A stretch of 64,000 bases of DNA from a phage. Location of the stretch: the sequence record PZ166176.1. One strand, written 5' to 3'. The notes under the pieces were generated by a model. It worked only from the letters and a program-made list of their open reading frames with translations. It was not told the origin of the DNA and made no database searches. Below are positions 45,240 to 64,000 of this stretch, piece after piece. The translations under genes were made by a program, and so were the position numbers. Positions within the stretch are counted from its first letter, which is position 1. Each line of letters starts with the position of its first letter.

Positions 45240-45799
45240 ACACCCTCGCTACGTAACTGTTGAAAAGATTTAGCCATTGCATCTTTTGTTGATAAAATAG
45301 GTTTAAAACCTTCGTCAAAAATCATATCGAAGCCCCAATCAATCCCTATATCAGGATCATCCCAACGTAAACTTTGTTCACTAGAAGGGTCGTATGGAGT
45401 TGTGCATTTGTATTCAAAGATCGCATCCATACTCAAAACTATGAAACCATGTGCCAAACCAGGAGGAAGCCAAAACTGCGTATGGTGTCGTGCACGAAGA
45501 ACAACACCGTCCCAAGCACCGTAAGTTGGGCTATCTTTACGTAAATCTACAGCGAAATCCAATACTTCCCCACTTACACAACGAACAAGCTTACCTTGCG
45601 GATTATTTGTTTGAAAATGCATTCCTCGCAAAACACCGAAGTTTGATTTAGACATATTATCTTGAACGAAAGTTTGTTTACCAATGATATCTTCGTATTT
45701 TTGTTCATTGTATGTTTCTAAAAAGAAACCACGATCATCTTTATAAACGTCTGGTTTGATAATTACCGCACCTTCAATTTTTGTTTTTTCTACTTTCAT
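45233..45799 (-). CDS. rmlC: dTDP-4-dehydrorhamnose 3,5-epimerase (RmlC)
   Basis: DDRGFFLET, RGMHFQ, QGKLVRCVSGEVLDFAVDLRKDSPTYG, PPGLAHGF, RWDDPDIGIDW align with RmlC. Confidence 0.85.
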   Translation of the reverse strand: MKVEKTKIEGAVIIKPDVYKDDRGFFLETYNEQKYEDIIGKQTFVQDNMSKSNFGVLRGMHFQTNNPQGKLVRCVSGEVLDFAVDLRKDSPTYGAWDGVVLRARHHTQFWLPPGLAHGFIVLSMDAIFEYKCTTPYDPSSEQSLRWDDPDIGIDWGFDMIFDEGFKPILSTKDAMAKSFQQLRSEGVC

Positions 45800-45808
45800 T
45801 TTCTCTCC

Positions 45809-46135
45809 TTACCAGACGTGTTGAGAAATAATAGTTTCCGTTTTAATATTATATTTTTCAAGTAGCTCTGCATAGGCTTCTTTTGCATTCTCATTCAATT
45901 GCTCAAGATCTACAGCTATGCTTCCTTCTCCGCCTTCTAAATCAAGGCCGTATATGCAATAAGACTCATCCGCATCGTAGAAAGGAGAGATGCGGCTTAA
46001 GTCCAGACCTTCTTGTAAGAACCAGTTAAAATCTCCATCAAATTCTTCTTCAATTCTAGGATCTTCTCCTACAGCCTCTTCCCACTTATTAAAAGGTGCA
46101 CCCTGTAACATACGCCATTCGATATCAATACCCAT
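45809..46135 (-). CDS. hypothetical acidic protein (108 aa)
   Basis: SD gaggag. Confidence 0.6.
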   Translation of the reverse strand: MGIDIEWRMLQGAPFNKWEEAVGEDPRIEEEFDGDFNWFLQEGLDLSRISPFYDADESYCIYGLDLEGGEGSIAVDLEQLNENAKEAYAELLEKYNIKTETIISQHVW

Positions 46136-46289
46136 TTTTCATCTCCTCCTCTTCTTGAGCAGCTTTAATAATTGCTTCATAAATATCGTAAGCAATGCCT
46201 CCACAACATCTAGCTTCGAAAGCTATTGCTTCTGCAATGTGATCTGTTAATTCTCGTGGAATGCGGACATACTCTTTTTCACTCTCCAT
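46125..46289 (-). CDS. 54-aa small protein
   Basis: MESEKEYVRIPRELTDHIAEAIAFEARCCGG...; overlap-coupled on both sides. Confidence 0.4.
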   Translation of the reverse strand: MESEKEYVRIPRELTDHIAEAIAFEARCCGGIAYDIYEAIIKAAQEEEEMKNGY

Positions 46290-46431
46290 CTTCTACCTCC
46301 AACCCTTCTTTTTCAAAGACTACTACTCGTCCCTCACCATGACAATTCAGGCAAGGAAATGTTACCATAATTTCCACTTCCATCTGTCCAGTCCCACCGC
46401 ACACAGGACAAAAAATAAGTTTTTCAGCCAT
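46279..46431 (-). CDS. 50-aa zinc-ribbon small protein
   Basis: MAEKLIFCPVCGGTGQMEVEIMVTFPCLNCHGEGRVVVFEKEG; TAATG overlap with the upstream gene. Confidence 0.5.
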   Translation of the reverse strand: MAEKLIFCPVCGGTGQMEVEIMVTFPCLNCHGEGRVVVFEKEGLEVEDGE

Positions 46432-46640
46432 TATTCCTCCTTAATTATTTCAAACTTGGCAACACCATTTACAATAATATGACCACAAGACATAACTCCT
46501 AGCCAAGGATCGCCGTTTTTCTTCCGGCGTTTACCGAATACATCACAAAAACCATTCTTCATTTCGGAGGCTTCATAAGAAGCCCCTTTGTCAAAAACGT
46601 CTTTGAATGTGTCGATTATACCAACACATCTCAAAATCAT
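46431..46640 (-). CDS. hypothetical protein (69 aa)
   Basis: ORF coupled to nrdB. Confidence 0.55.
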   Translation of the reverse strand: MILRCVGIIDTFKDVFDKGASYEASEMKNGFCDVFGKRRKKNGDPWLGVMSCGHIIVNGVAKFEIIKEE

Positions 46641-47725
46641 TAGAAGTCAAGCTCCTCATCATCAGAGAGATCTTTGTTAGCTGAATTCAATTTGTAATTA
46701 GTTAACTGAATCTCTTGGGCTGCTGACTGAATCAAATCAGGATTCAACCATTTTTCCATCCAAGCTAAAGGACTATGTTTAGGTGCTTTAAACTTGGCTT
46801 TCATTTTCAATCGACGATAAATAGGAGCAGCATTGAAATAAACCCACTGTTTAGACAATTCGGCGTTAAGACCTACAATAAAACGACCTTCACTAAACAG
46901 GTAGTCACACCACTGTTCCTCTTGTTCAACAACAGTGTCGAGGATCAAAGTCAACTCTTCAATATTGTCTTCGTAAATTTTACGCCAAATTGGGTCATGC
47001 ATCAATGCATCAATTACAGCATAATCCATCTTAACATGCAAGATTTCATCTAGCATAATTTTCTGGATCAGTTTACAAGCCCCAACAAACAGTTGTTGTT
47101 CTGCCATAGCAAAAGTAGCAGAGAAGGAAGATATAAACTGAATACCTTCTAATCCAATCAGGGCTACCATCCCTTTAAGAATCAGCAATCGAAGTTCATC
47201 GTTAGCTTCAATCAATCCTAGAGCATACTTATGACCAGCTTCTTCCAACTGACCCATGATATCAGCAATGATACCCATACGATTGAAAATTTTATCATTA
47301 ATCATAATCTGATTGATGACTTCAATTGGATCTGGAGTACATTGACGGATTATTTCAGAATACGTTAACGCATGGAGAACTTCCATTTCACTCTGCTTCA
47401 TCATCATAGCACAGGCTTCATTGTTACTCAAGAATGGAGAGAACAAAGTGATGATTGATTTTGCAAGAGAATCATTTTCCCATTGGAACGATAAGTTTTT
47501 AATCATAACATCGTAGTTGTTTTTAGAACAAGCTACGAAATCTTTACGTGTCTGATCCAGATTAACTTCGTTTTCATCCCAATCTTGTGCTTTTTGAAGC
47601 TTGTAGAGTTTGTGCATTTCTGGGTAAGTTACGTTAACAGAATCAAAGATCCCTAATTGCTCCCCCAAAAATACTGGATATTTTCCTGTTTTGTAAACTT
47701 CATTGTGTAAATTAATTGCTGCCAT
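46640..47725 (-). CDS. nrdB: ribonucleotide reductase class Ia small subunit (NrdB)
   Basis: 361 aa, ferritin-like family; C-terminal acidic tail DDEELDF typical of the R2 tail; SD ggagga. Confidence 0.85.
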   Translation of the reverse strand: MAAINLHNEVYKTGKYPVFLGEQLGIFDSVNVTYPEMHKLYKLQKAQDWDENEVNLDQTRKDFVACSKNNYDVMIKNLSFQWENDSLAKSIITLFSPFLSNNEACAMMMKQSEMEVLHALTYSEIIRQCTPDPIEVINQIMINDKIFNRMGIIADIMGQLEEAGHKYALGLIEANDELRLLILKGMVALIGLEGIQFISSFSATFAMAEQQLFVGACKLIQKIMLDEILHVKMDYAVIDALMHDPIWRKIYEDNIEELTLILDTVVEQEEQWCDYLFSEGRFIVGLNAELSKQWVYFNAAPIYRRLKMKAKFKAPKHSPLAWMEKWLNPDLIQSAAQEIQLTNYKLNSANKDLSDDEELDF

Positions 47726-54211: not shown

Positions 54212-55171
54212 TTAGATTCCAATGATAGTTGCTGCTCGTTTATCCTTGGATCTGGTGTTTGCTCTACTACGTGACAAACCTCCGCAAGATTCACAACGAA
54301 TGATATCGAAAGAACTTACCGCAGTGTGGTATTGTTTACCAGTAACAACGTGAACGTGATCACTGCCACAACGAGAACAACGGACCTTCTCATCTGGGTA
54401 ATAAGCGGATAAGTTAGGATGCTGTGGAATCCACGGAAGGATTTTCATATATAAATCACGGAGTGAAACAACATCACCATCATTGTAAATCTGCATACGT
54501 TCAAAAGCATCACGATCACCTTCACAACATGCTTTCCATAAAGGGAACCCCTCGTTATCCAGTTTTTCACTTTCTGTTTCGAAATATGCTCCCATTTCTT
54601 TAAGGGAGTTGGAAGGAAGTGCAAATTGTTTCTTAGCTGCCTTCAATGTATCAACAACTACATAATTAGAAGGAGGAGCCATATCGTGATATGCAAATCG
54701 TTGGTTAATGTATGCACGGTCAAACTTATATCCGTTGTGTGCCACAACTACATCTGCCTCATTCAGAAGGTTCCAAAGATCTTGGCAAAGCTCCCAATCA
54801 TCTGTATGATCAATATCAAAAAGAGGATAAGAAGACAAGTTCTTACCTTCCACTTCACCAGTATACAGGTCAGCAGAAGAGTAAGATAACAAATAACCCC
54901 TACGAATTACTTGATCTGGAGAAATGAAGGCTTTGAATCGACGGAAAGTATATGCAATCTCTGGTGCAGTTTCAACATCAATAATTTTAATAACTGGTTG
55001 TTTCTTTTTAACTGGCTCTTGTTTACTTGCTCCAAATCGTGCAAGGAAATCGTTCACTGTGCTTTTTCTTGTTGGACTACCTAAAACAATTGCTGCAATA
55101 TTACGAGAAGACATACCCTCTGCACTCATACTAAGGATATCTGCTTTCTGCTCTTCTGTTAATCTGCTCAC
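54212..55171 (-). CDS. DEDD-family 3'-5' exonuclease with N-terminal HTH and C-terminal zinc ribbon
   Basis: IIDVETAPE, AHNGYKFD, YNDGDVVSL (DEDDh-like); N-terminal LSMSAEGMSSRNIAAIV helix-turn-helix; CSRCG...CESCGG. Confidence 0.6.
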   Translation of the reverse strand: MSRLTEEQKADILSMSAEGMSSRNIAAIVLGSPTRKSTVNDFLARFGASKQEPVKKKQPVIKIIDVETAPEIAYTFRRFKAFISPDQVIRRGYLLSYSSADLYTGEVEGKNLSSYPLFDIDHTDDWELCQDLWNLLNEADVVVAHNGYKFDRAYINQRFAYHDMAPPSNYVVVDTLKAAKKQFALPSNSLKEMGAYFETESEKLDNEGFPLWKACCEGDRDAFERMQIYNDGDVVSLRDLYMKILPWIPQHPNLSAYYPDEKVRCSRCGSDHVHVVTGKQYHTAVSSFDIIRCESCGGLSRSRANTRSKDKRAATIIGI

Positions 55172-56283
55172 TCTGCCTCCTGTTGTGAGATGTATGATTG
55201 AAGCATACTCTCAAATGTTGTATCGTCATTATCCCAGCGTTTCATGTATACCAACTGGAAAATTGTTTCTATCCATTCATCTGTTGTCATATGGACTTCT
55301 TCTCCATCCCAAGAAGTAAAATTAACACCATCTGGGAACCACGAGTAGTAAGTATCTTTAACTGTTTGGAAAAGTTCTGCTTGAGTTTTACAAGCTGAAA
55401 GAAGATTAAAACAAGTAATATCTCCGAACTTAATATCAAAATCTTGATAAGGTCGGATACTATCTGTTTTATCTCCCATTAGCATCTGATATGCTAACCA
55501 GTAACTGCCCCAACCTTTAACTTCTTTCTTTTTACCTTTATCTACAATCCATATATCGCCAATAGACTCGTCAATAAGAATTATATCTGGATTTTTAAAT
55601 ACTCCATCCTCTTTGTAGAAATTAAAAAGGATACTAGGAGTATGTAAACTATCTTTATCTATAGACACTACGATATAAGAAAATTTACCCGTCCTTTTAT
55701 AATCTTTATAACCTTGGAAACCATACTTCTCTAACTCATCGTCAGCCTCTATTACAGTAACAACATCACCATTGTGGAACTCCACAAGATAATCTTTGGT
55801 TTCTGAAAGCTGAAGTGGTTTGATATCTAATCGTTCAGATTTATATTCTACAGGCATTTTGAAGGCGTGTCTGAAAGTTTTTCCTACGCCAATAACTCCG
55901 CAATATTTTTCTAAACGTAGATGTTTTAGAATACCTAAGACTTTTGTTTTAGCTGCTTGGAAGGTGTGTCCGATATCTTCTGGCGGGTATTGCTTATCAA
56001 TGATTTCGAACTCTTCCTTTGTGAAGGGACGTTTGTTTTTGGAGGCTCTTTCTGCATTTGTATCTCCTAGCCAACCTCCAATTTTAGTCTTGCTTTTACC
56101 CCAAAACTCTGTCTTATTTTTAAATTCCTTTTGAGCACCTGAAGGGATGTGCTTCGCAATGATTGTTCTTTTCTCTAATGCAGACGCTGCTTGGAAAGCG
56201 ATCTGATCATAATCAATTGCAGCTATTGTTTCTTCGTTGACATATAAATGAAGATCTTCAGGTTTAATTAAAATATAACCGCT
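55168..56283 (-). CDS. rnh: T4 RNase H-like 5'-3' exonuclease (FEN family), start codon unresolved
   Basis: Frame is open from 56298; upstream part TIAAIDYDQIAFQAASAL parallels T4 RNase H ICLIDFSQIALSTAL; EADDELEKYG and LMGDKTDSI match FEN motifs; no ATG/GTG/TTG before 55857. Confidence 0.6.
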   Translation of the reverse strand, partial: SGYILIKPEDLHLYVNEETIAAIDYDQIAFQAASALEKRTIIAKHIPSGAQKEFKNKTEFWGKSKTKIGGWLGDTNAERASKNKRPFTKEEFEIIDKQYPPEDIGHTFQAAKTKVLGILKHLRLEKYCGVIGVGKTFRHAFKMPVEYKSERLDIKPLQLSETKDYLVEFHNGDVVTVIEADDELEKYGFQGYKDYKRTGKFSYIVVSIDKDSLHTPSILFNFYKEDGVFKNPDIILIDESIGDIWIVDKGKKKEVKGWGSYWLAYQMLMGDKTDSIRPYQDFDIKFGDITCFNLLSACKTQAELFQTVKDTYYSWFPDGVNFTSWDGEEVHMTTDEWIETIFQLVYMKRWDNDDTTFESMLQSYISQQEAE

Positions 56284-56298
56284 AATATTTCCCCCTAA

Positions 56299-56508
56299 TT
56301 ATTCATCGTCATCCTCTGTTGAGAATGTTTTAGTATACGGACATTGACGACTTTTCGGGATTGCTATAACTTCATCTTGGTTAGCGTTAGAATAGTAGCA
56401 ATATTTTGTGTTGCCATTAACTTCAGAATCAGACAAGATTAAAGTAATTTGACCTGCTGCTACTGTGAAACTAAAAGCTAAAAGAACGACTGTCAGAATC
56501 TTTTTCAT
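56299..56508 (-). CDS. small secreted protein with signal peptide (69 aa)
   Basis: MKKILTVVLLAFSFTVAAG signal-peptide-like; acidic C-terminus. Confidence 0.6.
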   Translation of the reverse strand: MKKILTVVLLAFSFTVAAGQITLILSDSEVNGNTKYCYYSNANQDEVIAIPKSRQCPYTKTFSTEDDDE

Positions 56509-56518
56509 AACGCCTCCT

Positions 56519-56548
56519 AAAAAGCCTACCTCATTAAGTAGGTAGGCA
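56519..56548 (-). terminator. rho-independent terminator (minus strand)
   Basis: Minus strand: gcctacctacttaatgaggtaggc plus ttttt. Confidence 0.6.
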
Positions 56549-56580
56549 TAATATCATAACTAATCCCGCAAGTCAAGAAC

Positions 56581-58633: not shown

Positions 58634-59761
58634 TTATTCTGCTGGTTCCCAAGTGCCTGGGATCATTTCTCGAATACGAACACCAACAGGTTTTGTTGGA
58701 ATACCTTCATCTGAAAATTCTTCATACTCTATTTCAACAAACTGGTTAATCAAGGTAGAAGCATTCTCTGCTTTACGATAATTGATAGTCTCATGAGCAT
58801 CTTTACGCATTAAGAATTCGACTACTTTACCATTTTCCATCTCACCTGTCAACACTCCATCGCCATTTTTATCACTTTTTGAATTTGTTACTTTAACTTC
58901 AAGGGTATGGCGAGGCTTACGTTTAATAACGTCATAAGAACGTTTATCAAATTCGTAAACTCCGTGAGCATTACGATATACTACACCTTCAGCTTTCTCA
59001 AGTAAAGCTTTTTCATAGAAAGCATCAAACTGTTCTTGGTTTTCAATAAACTCTGTATGAACTACACAAATAAGCTCGTCAAGACCATAATCTTCAACTA
59101 CTGCCTTAAGAGCAGCAAGAACATCAACACGTTTTTCAAACGGTAGATCTGGAACTGGAATATCGTATACGTAATAGTTCAGCAAAGGTGTATTTGCATT
59201 ATGCTTCTTCCAGGCACTGTTAATTTGTTGTAGACTAAGGACACCTAACCCAGCAAACACTTCACCATCAAGAGGATGACCAACAACTTCACTAATAAAG
59301 TTTGGAATACCTTTCCAATGAGGTGGCAGGTTGTACACTTCCCCAGCTTTTGATAAACACTCCCCTTTCATGTTAATCATAGAACGCAACCCGTTCAGTT
59401 TGTACTGTGCATAACCAGGGAACACAACCCTTTCAGGATAATCTTTATAATCCTGGCATTTCATTGGTGTGGAAGGAACATGGTTTTCAGCTTCTTCTTT
59501 TGTTTTATAATAGCCATTCTTTAACTGTTTTGTCCATTTGGCAAAAGCTTCAAGTTCAGCTTGTTCTTCCGGTGTTGTTTCATTGGAACGACCAATGTTT
59601 TTTGCTTCTGCTGTATAAGATTTTTCTGTGATTTTTCCACCTACTCTTCCATGAGCTACAGTAACAACTGCACCATCTGTATACACTGTCCACTGTTTAA
59701 GTTTTCCTTTTGAATCTTTACCATACAGCGTTTGATTTGTTTGTTGCATTAGTCCTCCCAT
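58634..59761 (-). CDS. ATP-dependent nucleic-acid ligase (DNA/RNA ligase superfamily)
   Basis: Motif I KLNGLR (KxNGxR variant), motif III LDGEVF, motif IV EGVVYR, motif V DVIKRK. Confidence 0.6.
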   Translation of the reverse strand: MGGLMQQTNQTLYGKDSKGKLKQWTVYTDGAVVTVAHGRVGGKITEKSYTAEAKNIGRSNETTPEEQAELEAFAKWTKQLKNGYYKTKEEAENHVPSTPMKCQDYKDYPERVVFPGYAQYKLNGLRSMINMKGECLSKAGEVYNLPPHWKGIPNFISEVVGHPLDGEVFAGLGVLSLQQINSAWKKHNANTPLLNYYVYDIPVPDLPFEKRVDVLAALKAVVEDYGLDELICVVHTEFIENQEQFDAFYEKALLEKAEGVVYRNAHGVYEFDKRSYDVIKRKPRHTLEVKVTNSKSDKNGDGVLTGEMENGKVVEFLMRKDAHETINYRKAENASTLINQFVEIEYEEFSDEGIPTKPVGVRIREMIPGTWEPAE

Positions 59762-59970
59762 TTAAAAACTGAAATTTTCAATCTGTTACACACTTCATCC
59801 AAATCTGCGTCGAGTAACGTTGTAGATGTTGCCAACATGTAATCAATGCTTGTGAAACCTTGCCCTTTGGCATAGTCAAACATATCTTCATACATATCTT
59901 CAAGATCACCGTCATCAAAAGTAGCTAGAAAATCCTCGTCTCCGCTACGAACATAAAATGCAGTACTCAT
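59749..59970 (-). CDS. hypothetical acidic protein (73 aa)
   Basis: ORF. Confidence 0.55.
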   Translation of the reverse strand: MSTAFYVRSGDEDFLATFDDGDLEDMYEDMFDYAKGQGFTSIDYMLATSTTLLDADLDEVCNRLKISVFKWED

Positions 59971-60155
59971 TCTTCTTCATCCCAAGATTCAAAAGCACAA
60001 CAATCATCGGTTTCTATAATACCAACACGTCCGCAGGTATTGCAAGTGATTTTATCCCCGTAGAATAAATAATTTTTATCACCCTCTGTGTTTACAGTTA
60101 TGTCATTACTACCACAAGGGCAAGTCAGCCAACCAACAACGATATCTTTTTTCAT
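59967..60155 (-). CDS. zinc-ribbon small protein (62 aa)
   Basis: CPCG...CNTCG. Confidence 0.55.
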   Translation of the reverse strand: MKKDIVVGWLTCPCGSNDITVNTEGDKNYLFYGDKITCNTCGRVGIIETDDCCAFESWDEEE

Positions 60156-60164
60156 AATCCCTCC

Positions 60165-60491
60165 TTAAGCGTTAAGTTCGTTGTTGAGTTCGTAAATCTC
60201 TTCTTGAAGAGCATCAATCTCTTCCTCCAAACGGGAGATCTCTTCTTTTAGATATACCATTTCGGATTCTTTCTCTTCTAATTCATTTTCAAATTTTACT
60301 TTATTAGCCTCATTTTCATAATTCAGTTCAGCGTAATCATCACGCATTTGTTCAATAAGATGAATCAGAGACAAGATGTAATTGTCTCCCGTTTCATCAC
60401 GCCACTCTTCACCGTGACGGAGAACGGTAATTCGTCCAGTATCTTCATCTAAAATTGTCTCATATTTACGATCATCTGTATAAATCTGCAT
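60165..60491 (-). CDS. coiled-coil protein (108 aa)
   Basis: C-terminal heptad-like EEISRLEEEIDALQEEIYELNNEL. Confidence 0.6.
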   Translation of the reverse strand: MQIYTDDRKYETILDEDTGRITVLRHGEEWRDETGDNYILSLIHLIEQMRDDYAELNYENEANKVKFENELEEKESEMVYLKEEISRLEEEIDALQEEIYELNNELNA

Positions 60492-60500
60492 TATTTCTCC

Positions 60501-60905
60501 TTATTGAAGTTTAAGTGAACCACGAAGACGTTTCTCTTGCTGATCACGGATATATTGTGGAACCTCGTGAATTGAATCATTACCGTGCCTATTTTCAACA
60601 ACTAAAGAGATAACTTGATAACCAAACTCTTCAGCAAGAGCTAAATAAGGTTTAAGTTCTTTCTCTGTGGTTGAAGTATTAGAAACAATAATCTTGTTAA
60701 GATTAGATGCCATAGCATCACGAACAATACCCTGACACCATGCGTGTGCTTTACCTACATTTTCTGGCTTCCAATCGTAAACACCACTCTCTGTGTAATG
60801 ATATTGATCTGCCTCACAGATAGGCCAATAACCTTCAGAAATAATTTCTGCTACTGTAGATTTACCAGCACCTGAAACGCCACGTAAAATGATAAGTTGT
60901 TTCAT
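60501..60905 (-). CDS. P-loop kinase, putative polynucleotide 5'-kinase
   Basis: Walker A GVSGAGKST at the N-terminus; small size like the Pnk kinase domain; adjacent to ligase and phosphoesterase. Confidence 0.6.
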   Translation of the reverse strand: MKQLIILRGVSGAGKSTVAEIISEGYWPICEADQYHYTESGVYDWKPENVGKAHAWCQGIVRDAMASNLNKIIVSNTSTTEKELKPYLALAEEFGYQVISLVVENRHGNDSIHEVPQYIRDQQEKRLRGSLKLQ

Positions 60906-61838
60906 TTATCCTCCAAAAAAGTTTTCGATTTTTTCACGTCGTTCTTGCTGATTTAAAGCAGCCCATTGAATCTTCGTAAAATTATTTTGAATCCATTCTA
61001 ACAAAGCGTAATATTCTTCGTCAACCATTTGTTTGGCATTTTTTGGATTATCCCAAATCAGATCCCACTTTTTATCTCCACCGCGCATAAGAAACTTCTT
61101 AGTAAGATAGTGTGGTGATTTAATTTTTAAAAGTAAGTTGAACGGATAGTTTGTTTCACGAACTACAAACCCTTCGTGTTTACAATGTTTAGACATTTCA
61201 ACAACATCTGAAAACTTAACCATTGGATGAACTTCAGGACGCTTAAATTTGGTGACAGAAGCAATTCCATCAAGAGCACCTTCAGGTAACATAAAACTTG
61301 TCCCATCAGGATTTTGAATTCTGGCACCAATTAAGTATGCACCTGGTTCTTCTTCGACAATATGCGGATCAGAAGGATCACAGATTTCAAAAAGGAAAGT
61401 TGCTTTTGCACTCTCTGTCCATTTGATGAAATGTTCTATGTCATCACACTCTGAAACAATATGATTCTTTGCAATACTTGCAAAATCTGATTCAAGGCTT
61501 CCTGTTGTCGATACAATAAGTTGACCTTTATATACACCTACAGAGGCCATAAAACCATTTATTTTACGAACCACATCTACAAGTTCATCCGCTGGTAGAT
61601 CTGTGCCATTCTCAAAACGATTAAAAATCTTAGTGAAAGGCCAAATAACAACATTGTCATCAGCATCAACAACGATTCCGCGACATTCTAGAAGACGAGA
61701 ATCAATGCTCCATAAGTTATCCCAGAAAACTTTGTTCTTATACTTAAGAACAGATAGACCAGAATACTCTCCTTCTTTATATGTTTTCTTATGAACTAAA
61801 CCTTTTTCAACCAAATCGTCGCAATTAAATTTAGCCAC
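60906..61838 (-). CDS. RNA ligase (Rnl2-like nucleotidyltransferase)
   Basis: Motif I RKINGFMA (compare T4 Rnl2 KIHGTN), motif IV EGFVVRE, motif V LLLKIK. Confidence 0.6.
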   Translation of the reverse strand: MAKFNCDDLVEKGLVHKKTYKEGEYSGLSVLKYKNKVFWDNLWSIDSRLLECRGIVVDADDNVVIWPFTKIFNRFENGTDLPADELVDVVRKINGFMASVGVYKGQLIVSTTGSLESDFASIAKNHIVSECDDIEHFIKWTESAKATFLFEICDPSDPHIVEEEPGAYLIGARIQNPDGTSFMLPEGALDGIASVTKFKRPEVHPMVKFSDVVEMSKHCKHEGFVVRETNYPFNLLLKIKSPHYLTKKFLMRGGDKKWDLIWDNPKNAKQMVDEEYYALLEWIQNNFTKIQWAALNQQERREKIENFFGG

Positions 61839-63935: not shown

Positions 63936-64000
63936 AGTGCCTCCACTTTCCACGTTTTACCCTTATCAACCAAGGTCTTTGCTACAGCATACTCCTTCCC

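Follow-up and report, generated by a model that had tools for sequence, protein, structure and literature searches.

Initiation at AUU was reportedly described in T4, likewise an E. coli phage, by Nivinskas et al. in 1992. The codon is said to lie within T4 gene 26 and to give a second, shorter product, whereas in the phage flap nuclease (FEN) gene analysed here AUU would be the sole start of the full-length protein. In E. coli itself, infC and pcnB are the only genes with confirmed non-canonical starts, and initiation from AUA, AUC or AUU runs at 1-2% of the AUG level, an N-terminal Met having been found for AUC (bioRxiv 10.1101/063800). In a reporter, AUU output was 6-8 times below that of AUG (PMC3592434), and non-canonical starts are inhibited by excess IF3 (PMC2268962). 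The AUU of infC stands 3 nt after the thrS stop and is used by reinitiation and by de novo initiation in about equal shares (PMC3592434); since the infC product is IF3 itself, this AUU forms an autoregulatory loop. For pcnB, which encodes poly(A) polymerase I, the inefficient AUU start is credited with limiting the translation of an enzyme whose excess does harm (Binns & Masters 2002, as related in PMC3592434), and the GTC start of Streptomyces sigR is repressed by IF3 in the experiments described in PMC5472188.

The FEN gene lies on the minus strand of a 64,000-nt stretch of phage DNA (record PZ166176.1), the whole of which is referred to here as the window. Reading this strand codon by codon, we found the frame open from the stop codon of an upstream 69-aa gene (TAA, 56301-56299) to a TGA at 55170-55168. 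Its first ATG is at 55857, and the 147 sense codons ahead of it (56298..55858) include no in-frame ATG, GTG or TTG; both the length of this open stretch and its lack of canonical codons had been claimed in the original prediction, and both were confirmed. The same 376-codon open frame is present in 65 GenBank phage genomes at an identity of at least 99%. That the N-terminal part has no canonical codon at all is lineage-specific and unremarkable by itself: relatives hold 1-6 of them within the equivalent 143 codons, at positions that shift between codon 6 and codon 143. By sequence comparison, the conserved feature is the missing canonical codon at the real start.

The proposed full-length flap endonuclease/5'-3' exonuclease CDS spans 55168..56286 on the minus strand (372 codons plus TGA) and begins with ATT (AUU) at 56284..56286. 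A Shine-Dalgarno (SD) sequence, AGGGGGA (56290..56296, minus strand), precedes it, with AAAT (4 nt) between the G-run and the ATT. ATT codons near a G-run had already been named as candidate initiators, which is correct, but their positions and the proposed spacing of 10-25 nt are not: the in-frame ATTs are at 56286, 56274 and 56268, and the first follows the G-run (56295-56291) after 4 nt. This spacing is at the short end for E. coli genes, yet it is the norm in this phage. AGGAGG-to-ATG distances in the window show a sharp peak, with 19 of 40 cases at 4 nt, and ORFs of at least 50 aa follow in all. When the window was scanned for a strong SD followed by ATT, ATC or ATA (ATH) and a long ORF, the FEN gene alone was without a canonical codon nearby; a genome-wide habit of ATH starts was rejected on this result. 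RNA structure around the start was indistinguishable from that of shuffled controls (z = -0.51).

No ATG, GTG or TTG of the open frame precedes the codon for Asp25 (56212..56214, minus strand; motif IDYDQ), the first invariant acidic residue, which is encoded 119 codons upstream of the annotated Met. A conserved N-terminal region had been predicted ahead of 55857, and the motif TIAAIDYDQIAFQAASAL was indeed found there, with Asp25 at 56214-56212. Asp25 is invariant in both of our alignments (58 and 15 sequences), and the conserved acidic residues D25, E180, D182, D183, D210, D212, D272 and D275 are invariant in the 58 homologues. The structural model predicts a PIN-like alpha/beta nuclease fold, superimposable on solved FEN and 5'-3' exonuclease members, in which a strand formed by residues 16-25 ends at D25 and four strands lie within residues 16-137. 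Sequence and model together suggest a carboxylate cluster as for two-metal catalysis, with one member at the end of the first beta-strand. PHROG 107 ('exonuclease') was matched at E 1.4e-55, and PF02739 was matched by 16 of the 58 homologues (best E 1.7e-6), the window protein itself staying below threshold; when the window protein was scanned against Pfam, whole and as separate N- and C-terminal parts, no meaningful match emerged. Searching the PDB by sequence alone gave nothing significant: phmmer returned no match and a profile search returned only T5 FEN, at E 0.64. The phage protein has the conserved acidic residues of the family in common with T5 D15, T4 RNase H and E. coli ExoIX, but it is approximately 100 residues longer, carries insertions and is 12-16% identical to them. 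On residue conservation and the model, the gene is an intact 372-codon member of the FEN superfamily (PF02739/PF01367) in a phAPEC8-like phage, with the activity being predicted.

We compared the start region across related phages, as the original prediction had proposed, using 45 loci with 33 distinct sequences and protein identity down to 56%. The codon at the start position is ATT in 16, ATC in 14 and ATA in 3 of the 33 distinct sequences, and never ATG, GTG or TTG; AGGAGG or AGGGGG stands 4-5 nt before it, so that a strong SD is present in every one of them. The third base of this codon changed at least six times on a neighbour-joining tree and never to G. Were all targets equiprobable, this would occur by chance with a probability of roughly (2/3)^6 = 0.09, and the statistical case for active avoidance of ATG is modest. 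The triplet before the ATH codon varies freely (AAT, ACT, ATT, GTT, AGT, AAC, AGG, AAG, AAA, TTT, ATC) and is an in-frame TAA in four lineages (L015, L032, L033 and L035). Codon 2, in turn, is Ser through AGC, TCT or TCA, and codon 3 is Gly through all four GGN; as they are kept by synonymous changes across non-adjacent codon families, these codons are translated. Substitutions at codon positions 1/2/3 number 135/44/327 in codons 2-20 and 1185/819/2662 in codons 2-143. This third-position excess marks clear purifying selection on the 143 codons upstream of Met144, and by the substitution pattern the coding constraint begins exactly at the ATH codon.

Homologues from Vequintavirinae have a canonical start at the same aligned position (X-G-Y-P), namely ATG in CR3, TTG in rV5-like phages and GTG in phiTE, each with an SD 4-6 nt before it. 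Comparative sequence analysis shows where the start lies and that it is conserved, and of the alternatives raised in the original prediction it is rare-codon initiation that gains support, specifically at ATT 56286-56284. Initiation at a later near-cognate codon still ahead of Asp25 (ATT 56274, ATT 56268, ATA 56226 or ATT 56217) is improbable. Such in-frame ATH codons are present and Ile is conserved at positions 5 and 7, but the candidates lie at least 16 nt from the SD, against the 4-5 nt usual in this phage, the Ser and Gly codons are maintained through synonymous changes, and the canonical starts of Vequintavirinae align to the first ATH. A sequencing or assembly error that removed a canonical start or shifted the frame, another of the alternatives, has nothing in its favour except the oddity itself and is of negligible probability: the same arrangement recurs in 45 independent loci. 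An identical or homologous start region was read in 65 Phapecoctavirus genomes, each sequenced independently, and the region recurs in isolates of Justusliebigvirus and in >20 contigs of separate metagenomic samples, so that the error is refuted.

Database annotations present a different picture of this gene. Among 12 GenBank/RefSeq records of Phapecoctavirus and Justusliebigvirus that we inspected, 11 give a shortened protein (229, 344 or about 363 aa) without the catalytic Asp25, and several of the truncated annotations place spurious small ORFs in the gap. The usual GenBank start is the ATG of the internal Met144 (55855..55857, minus strand), giving a 229-aa product, while phi92-like phages are annotated with 344 aa from a GTG. 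Were these calls correct, the upstream frame would be a decaying remnant, which is highly improbable given that its 143 codons are under purifying selection and hold Asp25 and the four modelled strands, all of which a product from Met144 would lack. Met144 is probably not a start: the preceding 'acacgccttcaaa' contains no SD, and the residue is replaced by Leu in five lineages (L022-L026). The suggestion that the gene is expressed as two pieces, or that the protein begins at Met-55857, fails on the same observations, the loss of Asp25 and the four strands included. In addition, the place of the first canonical codon differs widely among lineages, anywhere from codon 6 to codon 144, and the phi92 record itself remarks, 'No RBS identified; weak Prodigal statistics'. 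The RefSeq record of Escherichia phage ESCO13 (NC_047770.1, CDS 45700..46818, 99% identity) annotates 372 aa from this ATT together with an RBS feature, and the ATT start passes without comment in the ESCO13 genome paper (PMC5374246). A literature search on this start (phAPEC8, phi92, Stephanstirmvirinae; ATT/AUU starts in phages) found nothing specific.

Upstream of FEN and in the same orientation lies the 69-aa gene (56299..56508, minus strand; PHROG 4641), which has a signal-peptide-like N terminus, starts with AGGAGG, 4 nt and ATG, and has its TAA stop ending 12 nt before the ATT. In phi92, the annotation of its homologue includes a SignalP signal peptide. A sigma-70-like promoter (56576-56548, minus strand) upstream of this small gene and a terminator-like hairpin (56547-56524, minus strand) are both consensus matches only, though phage ASO2A has a terminator annotation there too; on these matches, 56524..56576 is likely the 5' boundary of a transcription unit comprising the small gene, FEN and a DnaQ-like 3'-5' exonuclease. 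The exonuclease gene (54212..55171, minus strand) has a GTG start that overlaps the FEN stop (GTGA), and in related contigs PF13482 is carried by neighbour genes.

In the window, the small gene and the FEN ORF share a frame with the TAA alone between them, and a public protein collection contains a 444-aa fusion protein (P0005), which could suggest that the nuclease is joined to the upstream ORF by stop-codon readthrough or frameshift. We regard such recoding as having next to no chance of being correct. P0005 owes its existence solely to a TAG read as Q: the corresponding DNA, locus L016, carries TAG and does not translate to P0005. Nor is the shared frame conserved, since phi92-like phages have the upstream gene in another frame; in L026 that gene is unrelated, two in-frame stops (TAG, TAA) separate the ORFs in the four lineages with TAA before the ATH codon, and a signal peptide on a replication nuclease is biologically senseless. 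One metagenome pipeline joined FEN to its neighbour through a TAG-as-Gln reading.

Initiation at the same ATT may fall mostly to ribosomes that come straight from termination at the small gene rather than to free 30S subunits. FEN output would then stand in a fixed, small proportion to the translation of the upstream gene. We consider such reinitiation coupling possible though not the likelier course; it is compatible with the best explanation given below. Every lineage has the upstream stop 9-20 nt ahead of its ATH codon, often overlapping the SD (TAGGAGG), and the proximity persists in L026, whose upstream gene encodes a methyltransferase and not a small secreted protein; infC, about half of whose initiation is by reinitiation, offers a parallel. 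However, genes in this phage are tightly packed and as a rule separated by short gaps, so that the proximity may be without meaning, and gene calling placed nothing upstream within about 300 nt in L020. Being IF3-sensitive itself and dependent on an SD (PMC2268962), reinitiation would gain nothing obvious from a non-canonical codon.

The explanation we favour, with a probability of roughly 85%, is that FEN translation begins at AUU 56286-56284, that this codon would be read by initiator fMet-tRNA on a ribosome positioned by the strong SD 4 nt upstream, and that synthesis would run at a low, IF3-sensitive set-point. Low output and IF3 repression of the phage gene are what we infer by analogy, from E. 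coli reporter studies of AUU, AUC and AUA only. As near-cognate starts these codons are discriminated against by IF3 and give about 1-15% of AUG output, which would account for the low set-point. As with pcnB, the weak start most likely keeps a potentially harmful nuclease scarce, here in a polycistronic mRNA. Both genes have an AUU start, the lowered expression of the phage gene being proposed; pcnB, however, is a host chromosomal gene, whereas FEN is a polycistronic phage replication gene in which the trait is kept across a whole phage clade. A phage initiator-like tRNA that reads AUH was considered and is unsupported. No tRNA genes were found in the window; phAPEC8 has 11 just past the point where the window ends, among them one tRNA-Ile(GAT) and two whose anticodon is CAT, and by eye all 11 have a paired 1-72 end and in none is the GGG/CCC anticodon stem of initiator tRNA present.

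Nuclease synthesis may also be sensitive to IF3 activity, as in infC. The phage gene resembles infC in its conserved AUU and SD a few nt past an upstream stop and in a codon class that IF3 discriminates against (PMC3592434, PMC2268962), but the infC codon serves an autoregulatory loop while the phage codon drifts among AUU, AUC and AUA. The phage product is a DNA nuclease, and any dependence on IF3 would therefore be one-way sensing. With sigR, the gene would share a non-canonical start as an IF3-based translational control point; the codon, organism and gene class differ, and the sigR case is experimental whereas ours is deduced. If relaxed IF3 proofreading is needed for AUU, AUC and AUA to be read, nuclease synthesis may follow the host initiation machinery, and the AUH start could act as a regulatory sensor tying synthesis of this flap/Okazaki-fragment nuclease to the host initiation state, for example through an IF3-to-ribosome ratio falling after host shut-off or through coupling to upstream-gene translation. 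We hold this last proposal to be speculative and rather unlikely. If true, it would be the first infC-like start-codon control in a phage, lasting through the whole history of Stephanstirmvirinae and their uncultured relatives.

Regardless of the sensor proposal, a probable AUH start in the flap nuclease of an E. coli phage has been kept across the related phage group and missed by most annotations, and it would add a new, deeply conserved natural case of the infC/pcnB type of weak start. Gene finders limited to ATG, GTG and TTG overlook such genes systematically. Phapecoctavirus and Justusliebigvirus phages are used in therapy cocktails and are included in the BASEL collection, so for functional screens it is important that the gene model be right. 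Here AUU, AUC and AUA replace one another and AUG, GUG and UUG are never seen, which provides a system for studying the selection of weak starts, suited also to asking whether the IF3 level matters during infection. Homologues from Felixounavirus align to the C-terminal half alone, which hinted at a comparable problem in that group, but the gene of phage momo is annotated as an ordinary full-length gene.

The minus-strand frame opens after a TAA at 56301-56299 and closes with the TGA at 55170-55168. Its first ATG lies at 55857 (Met144), and the 147 sense codons before that ATG (56298..55858) include neither GTG nor TTG. Codon reading thus confirmed the open frame described in the original prediction. 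In-frame ATT codons occur at 56286, 56274 and 56268. Candidate ATT codons had been placed 10-25 nt after a G stretch; the G-run is actually at 56295-56291, and the spacer to the first ATT is only 4 nt (AAAT). We propose, with a probability of about 0.85, that the 372-aa flap endonuclease (FEN) starts at this ATT (56286-56284). Five independent lines of sequence evidence converge on this candidate start, namely ribosome-binding geometry, conservation, the onset of coding constraint, homologous starts and the lack of an alternative.

The FEN start reads AGGGGG, 4 nt, then ATT. Throughout the window, AGGAGG-to-ATG spacings cluster sharply at 4 nt, the value in 19 of 40 occurrences, all with an ORF of 50 aa or longer behind them, and the upstream 69-aa gene itself begins with AGGAGG, CGTT and ATG. 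The start regions of related phages, a comparison suggested with the original prediction, were gathered from GenBank isolates, IMG/VR, Logan/ENA assemblies and JGI metagenomes, giving 45 loci with 33 distinct sequences and protein identity down to 56%. All 33 carry AGGAGG or AGGGGG followed 4-5 nt on by ATT (16), ATC (14) or ATA (3), together ATH, and none has ATG, GTG or TTG at this position. The third base of the start codon has changed at least six times on a neighbour-joining tree, never to G. The preceding triplet is unconstrained (AAT, ACT, ATT, GTT, AGT, AAC, AGG, AAG, AAA, TTT, ATC), and in four lineages (loci L015, L032, L033 and L035) an in-frame TAA stands directly before ATH, so translation does not start further upstream. 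The codon after ATH encodes Ser (AGC, TCT or TCA) and the next Gly, with all four GGN codons used. Substitutions at codon positions 1, 2 and 3 number 135, 44 and 327 in codons 2-20 and 1185, 819 and 2662 in codons 2-143, a pattern comparable to that of the C-terminal part (1187, 848 and 4152). Vequintavirinae homologues, which are more distant, start at the same aligned position (X-G-Y-P...), with ATG in CR3, TTG in the rV5-like CarlMeissner and, by our reading, GTG in phiTE, a Shine-Dalgarno sequence (SD) lying 4-6 nt before each. The first canonical in-frame codon shifts among lineages (codon 6, 10, 12, 16, 21, 29, 36 or 143/144); Met144 lacks an SD and is replaced by Leu in L022-L026. In the interval -6 to +30 around ATH, most lineages are free of ATG, GTG and TTG in all three frames. 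The evidence thus supports the rare-codon option of the original prediction, specifically ATT 56286-56284.

Its other two options are rejected. Within the genus Phapecoctavirus (phAPEC8-like phages of the Stephanstirmvirinae), 65 GenBank genomes match the region at 99% identity or more, which rules out a sequencing error. Expression as two pieces, like decay into a pseudogene, is excluded by the structural argument below and by the purifying selection that acts on the N-terminal region. Readthrough from the upstream gene is rejected as well: that gene is in frame in the window but out of frame in phi92-like phages, two stops separate it from ATH in four lineages, and a methyltransferase gene replaces it in L026. 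A 444-aa 'fusion' of the small upstream ORF and the FEN ORF (public protein P0005) is a gene-calling artefact in which a TAG in the DNA appears as Gln in the protein; its DNA (L016:1501-2835, Logan contig SRR30397360_28145) was reported as 'translates_to_query: no'. A TAG-recoded genetic code was evidently applied in calling this contig; under code 11 the start-less FEN ORF lowers coding density, which may have favoured that choice. A search for a phage-encoded initiator tRNA for AUH yielded no support, and nothing conspicuous was found in RNA structure around the FEN start.

The RNase H/FEN family assignment proved correct. Residues 10-367 hit PHROG 107 'exonuclease' with E 1.4e-55, and the first 143 residues suffice for a hit to it (E 5e-7). 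Pfam and PDB sequence searches with the window protein itself gave no match; PF02739 (5'-3' exonuclease N-terminal domain) is matched by 16 of 58 homologues. AlphaFold, given 58 homologues, yields a model of very high confidence (pLDDT 96.2, pTM 0.90), whose structural comparisons scored 16.0 with a plastid 5'-3' exonuclease, 14.4 with M. smegmatis FenA, 13.9 with E. coli ExoIX, 13.7 with T5 5'-exonuclease, 13.2 with T4 RNase H and about 10-11.5 with Exo1, FEN-1, XPG and GEN1, in agreement with Foldseek. Eight acidic residues are invariant: D25, E180, D182, D183, D210, D212, D272 and D275. Since D25 and the model strands 16-25, 39-46, 93-100 and 127-137 precede Met144, a product starting there (229 aa) would lack one invariant acidic residue and four strands of the model.

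The great majority of public records carry the wrong FEN gene model. Among eight Phapecoctavirus records inspected, seven give a shortened protein: six start at Met144 (229 aa, 'putative exonuclease' or 'RNaseH') and phiWec179 at a TTG, codon 12. Four Justusliebigvirus (phi92-like) records place the start at codon 29, a GTG (344 aa), losing the IDYDQ motif, and the phi92 record itself remarks 'No RBS identified; weak Prodigal statistics'. Klebsiella phage FKP3 is also filed under Justusliebigvirus; there the N-terminal region of the gene bears opposite-strand ORFs only, and the phage's protein entry (P0029) is the 229-aa form. The sole exception is RefSeq NC_047770.1 (ESCO13), whose CDS 45700..46818 (372 codons) begins at exactly this ATT with an adjoining RBS feature; the ESCO13 genome announcement does not mention the ATT start. 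Because the real start was missed, several GenBank records contain spurious small ORFs within the N-terminal 143 codons (441 nt, window 55858-56298; corresponding regions of L001, L003 and L050), such as phAPEC8 G377_gp266 (123 nt), two CDS in WPEC4 and opposite-strand CDS in FKP3.

The sequence comparison shows where the start lies and that it is conserved; how it works is inferred from earlier knowledge. The initiator anticodon pairs with the first two bases of AUU, AUC and AUA but not with the third. Initiation at these codons reaches ~1-2% of that at AUG, with N-terminal Met shown for AUC (bioRxiv 10.1101/063800), AUU output was 6-8 times below AUG in another reporter (PMC3592434), and such codons are selectively rejected by IF3 (PMC2268962). 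With a strong SD in front of an AUH codon, nuclease output from a polycistronic mRNA would be low and fixed; this mRNA probably runs from a promoter-like site (56576-56548) through the small gene and FEN to the overlapping DnaQ-like exonuclease gene. Interchange among AUH codons without the three efficient codons is what would be expected if a weak, IF3-discriminated start is the selected property; the statistics on the six third-base changes are suggestive only. Selection of a weak start to limit FEN expression has, in our estimate, an even chance of being right, and an IF3-sensing regulatory switch seems unlikely. FEN output may also depend on termination of the upstream gene, whose stop lies 9-20 nt from ATH, as it does at thrS-infC (PMC3592434), or on IF3 levels during infection. 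AUU initiation is an already known kind of phenomenon, the confirmed non-canonical cases in E. coli being infC and pcnB only (bioRxiv 10.1101/063800), and the correct FEN model already exists in one RefSeq record; our literature searches found no paper noting the FEN ATT start. New here is the finding that AUH initiation at a phage replication nuclease is ancient and conserved across the clade, with each of the three Ile codons in use.

The TAA at 56301-56299 is the stop of the co-oriented upstream gene (56508..56299, minus strand; 69 aa, signal-peptide-like N terminus, two Cys), which most relatives keep upstream of FEN (PHROG 4641; SignalP-positive in the phi92 record). Its place beside replication and recombination genes is odd. 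Directly after rdgC lies a strong terminator-like hairpin (GCCTACCT...AGGTAGGC plus TTTTT), immediately preceded by a sigma-70 promoter match (10/12, extended -10 TG). These consensus matches (56524-56576, minus strand) suggest a terminator-promoter junction heading the small-gene/FEN/DnaQ-like exonuclease unit.

An 11-tRNA cluster (L028:7144-9149; phAPEC8 record 59143-61148), which would fall just past window position 64000, includes two CAT-anticodon tRNAs and tRNA-Ile(GAT), so the phage supplies its own AUH decoders. The acceptor stem of the first CAT tRNA resembles that of AUA-reading tRNA-Ile2 (ileX), the second CAT tRNA carries a pseudo-tRNA flag, and none of the 11 appeared initiator-like by eye.

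Two more sites in the window with a strong SD and ATT/ATA head long ORFs (53908 and 42145, minus strand); a canonical start follows immediately at each, and both are ordinary starts with 6-7 nt spacing rather than additional ATH starts. In one metagenomic lineage (L024:560-570; L039 and L041, about 392-404), the SD (AGGAGGATGTTATT) is directly adjoined by an ATG that is out of frame and lies 5 nt upstream of the in-frame ATT; this spacing is probably too short for use, but the ATG could still rival or tune initiation at the ATT. In Pectobacterium phage phiTE (NC_020201.1, L007:377-420), the annotated exonuclease ATG has no SD, and AGGAGG, 5 nt and GTG-GGA-TAC-CCT, homologous to the CR3/rV5 starts, lie 10 codons downstream; this GTG looks like the real start.
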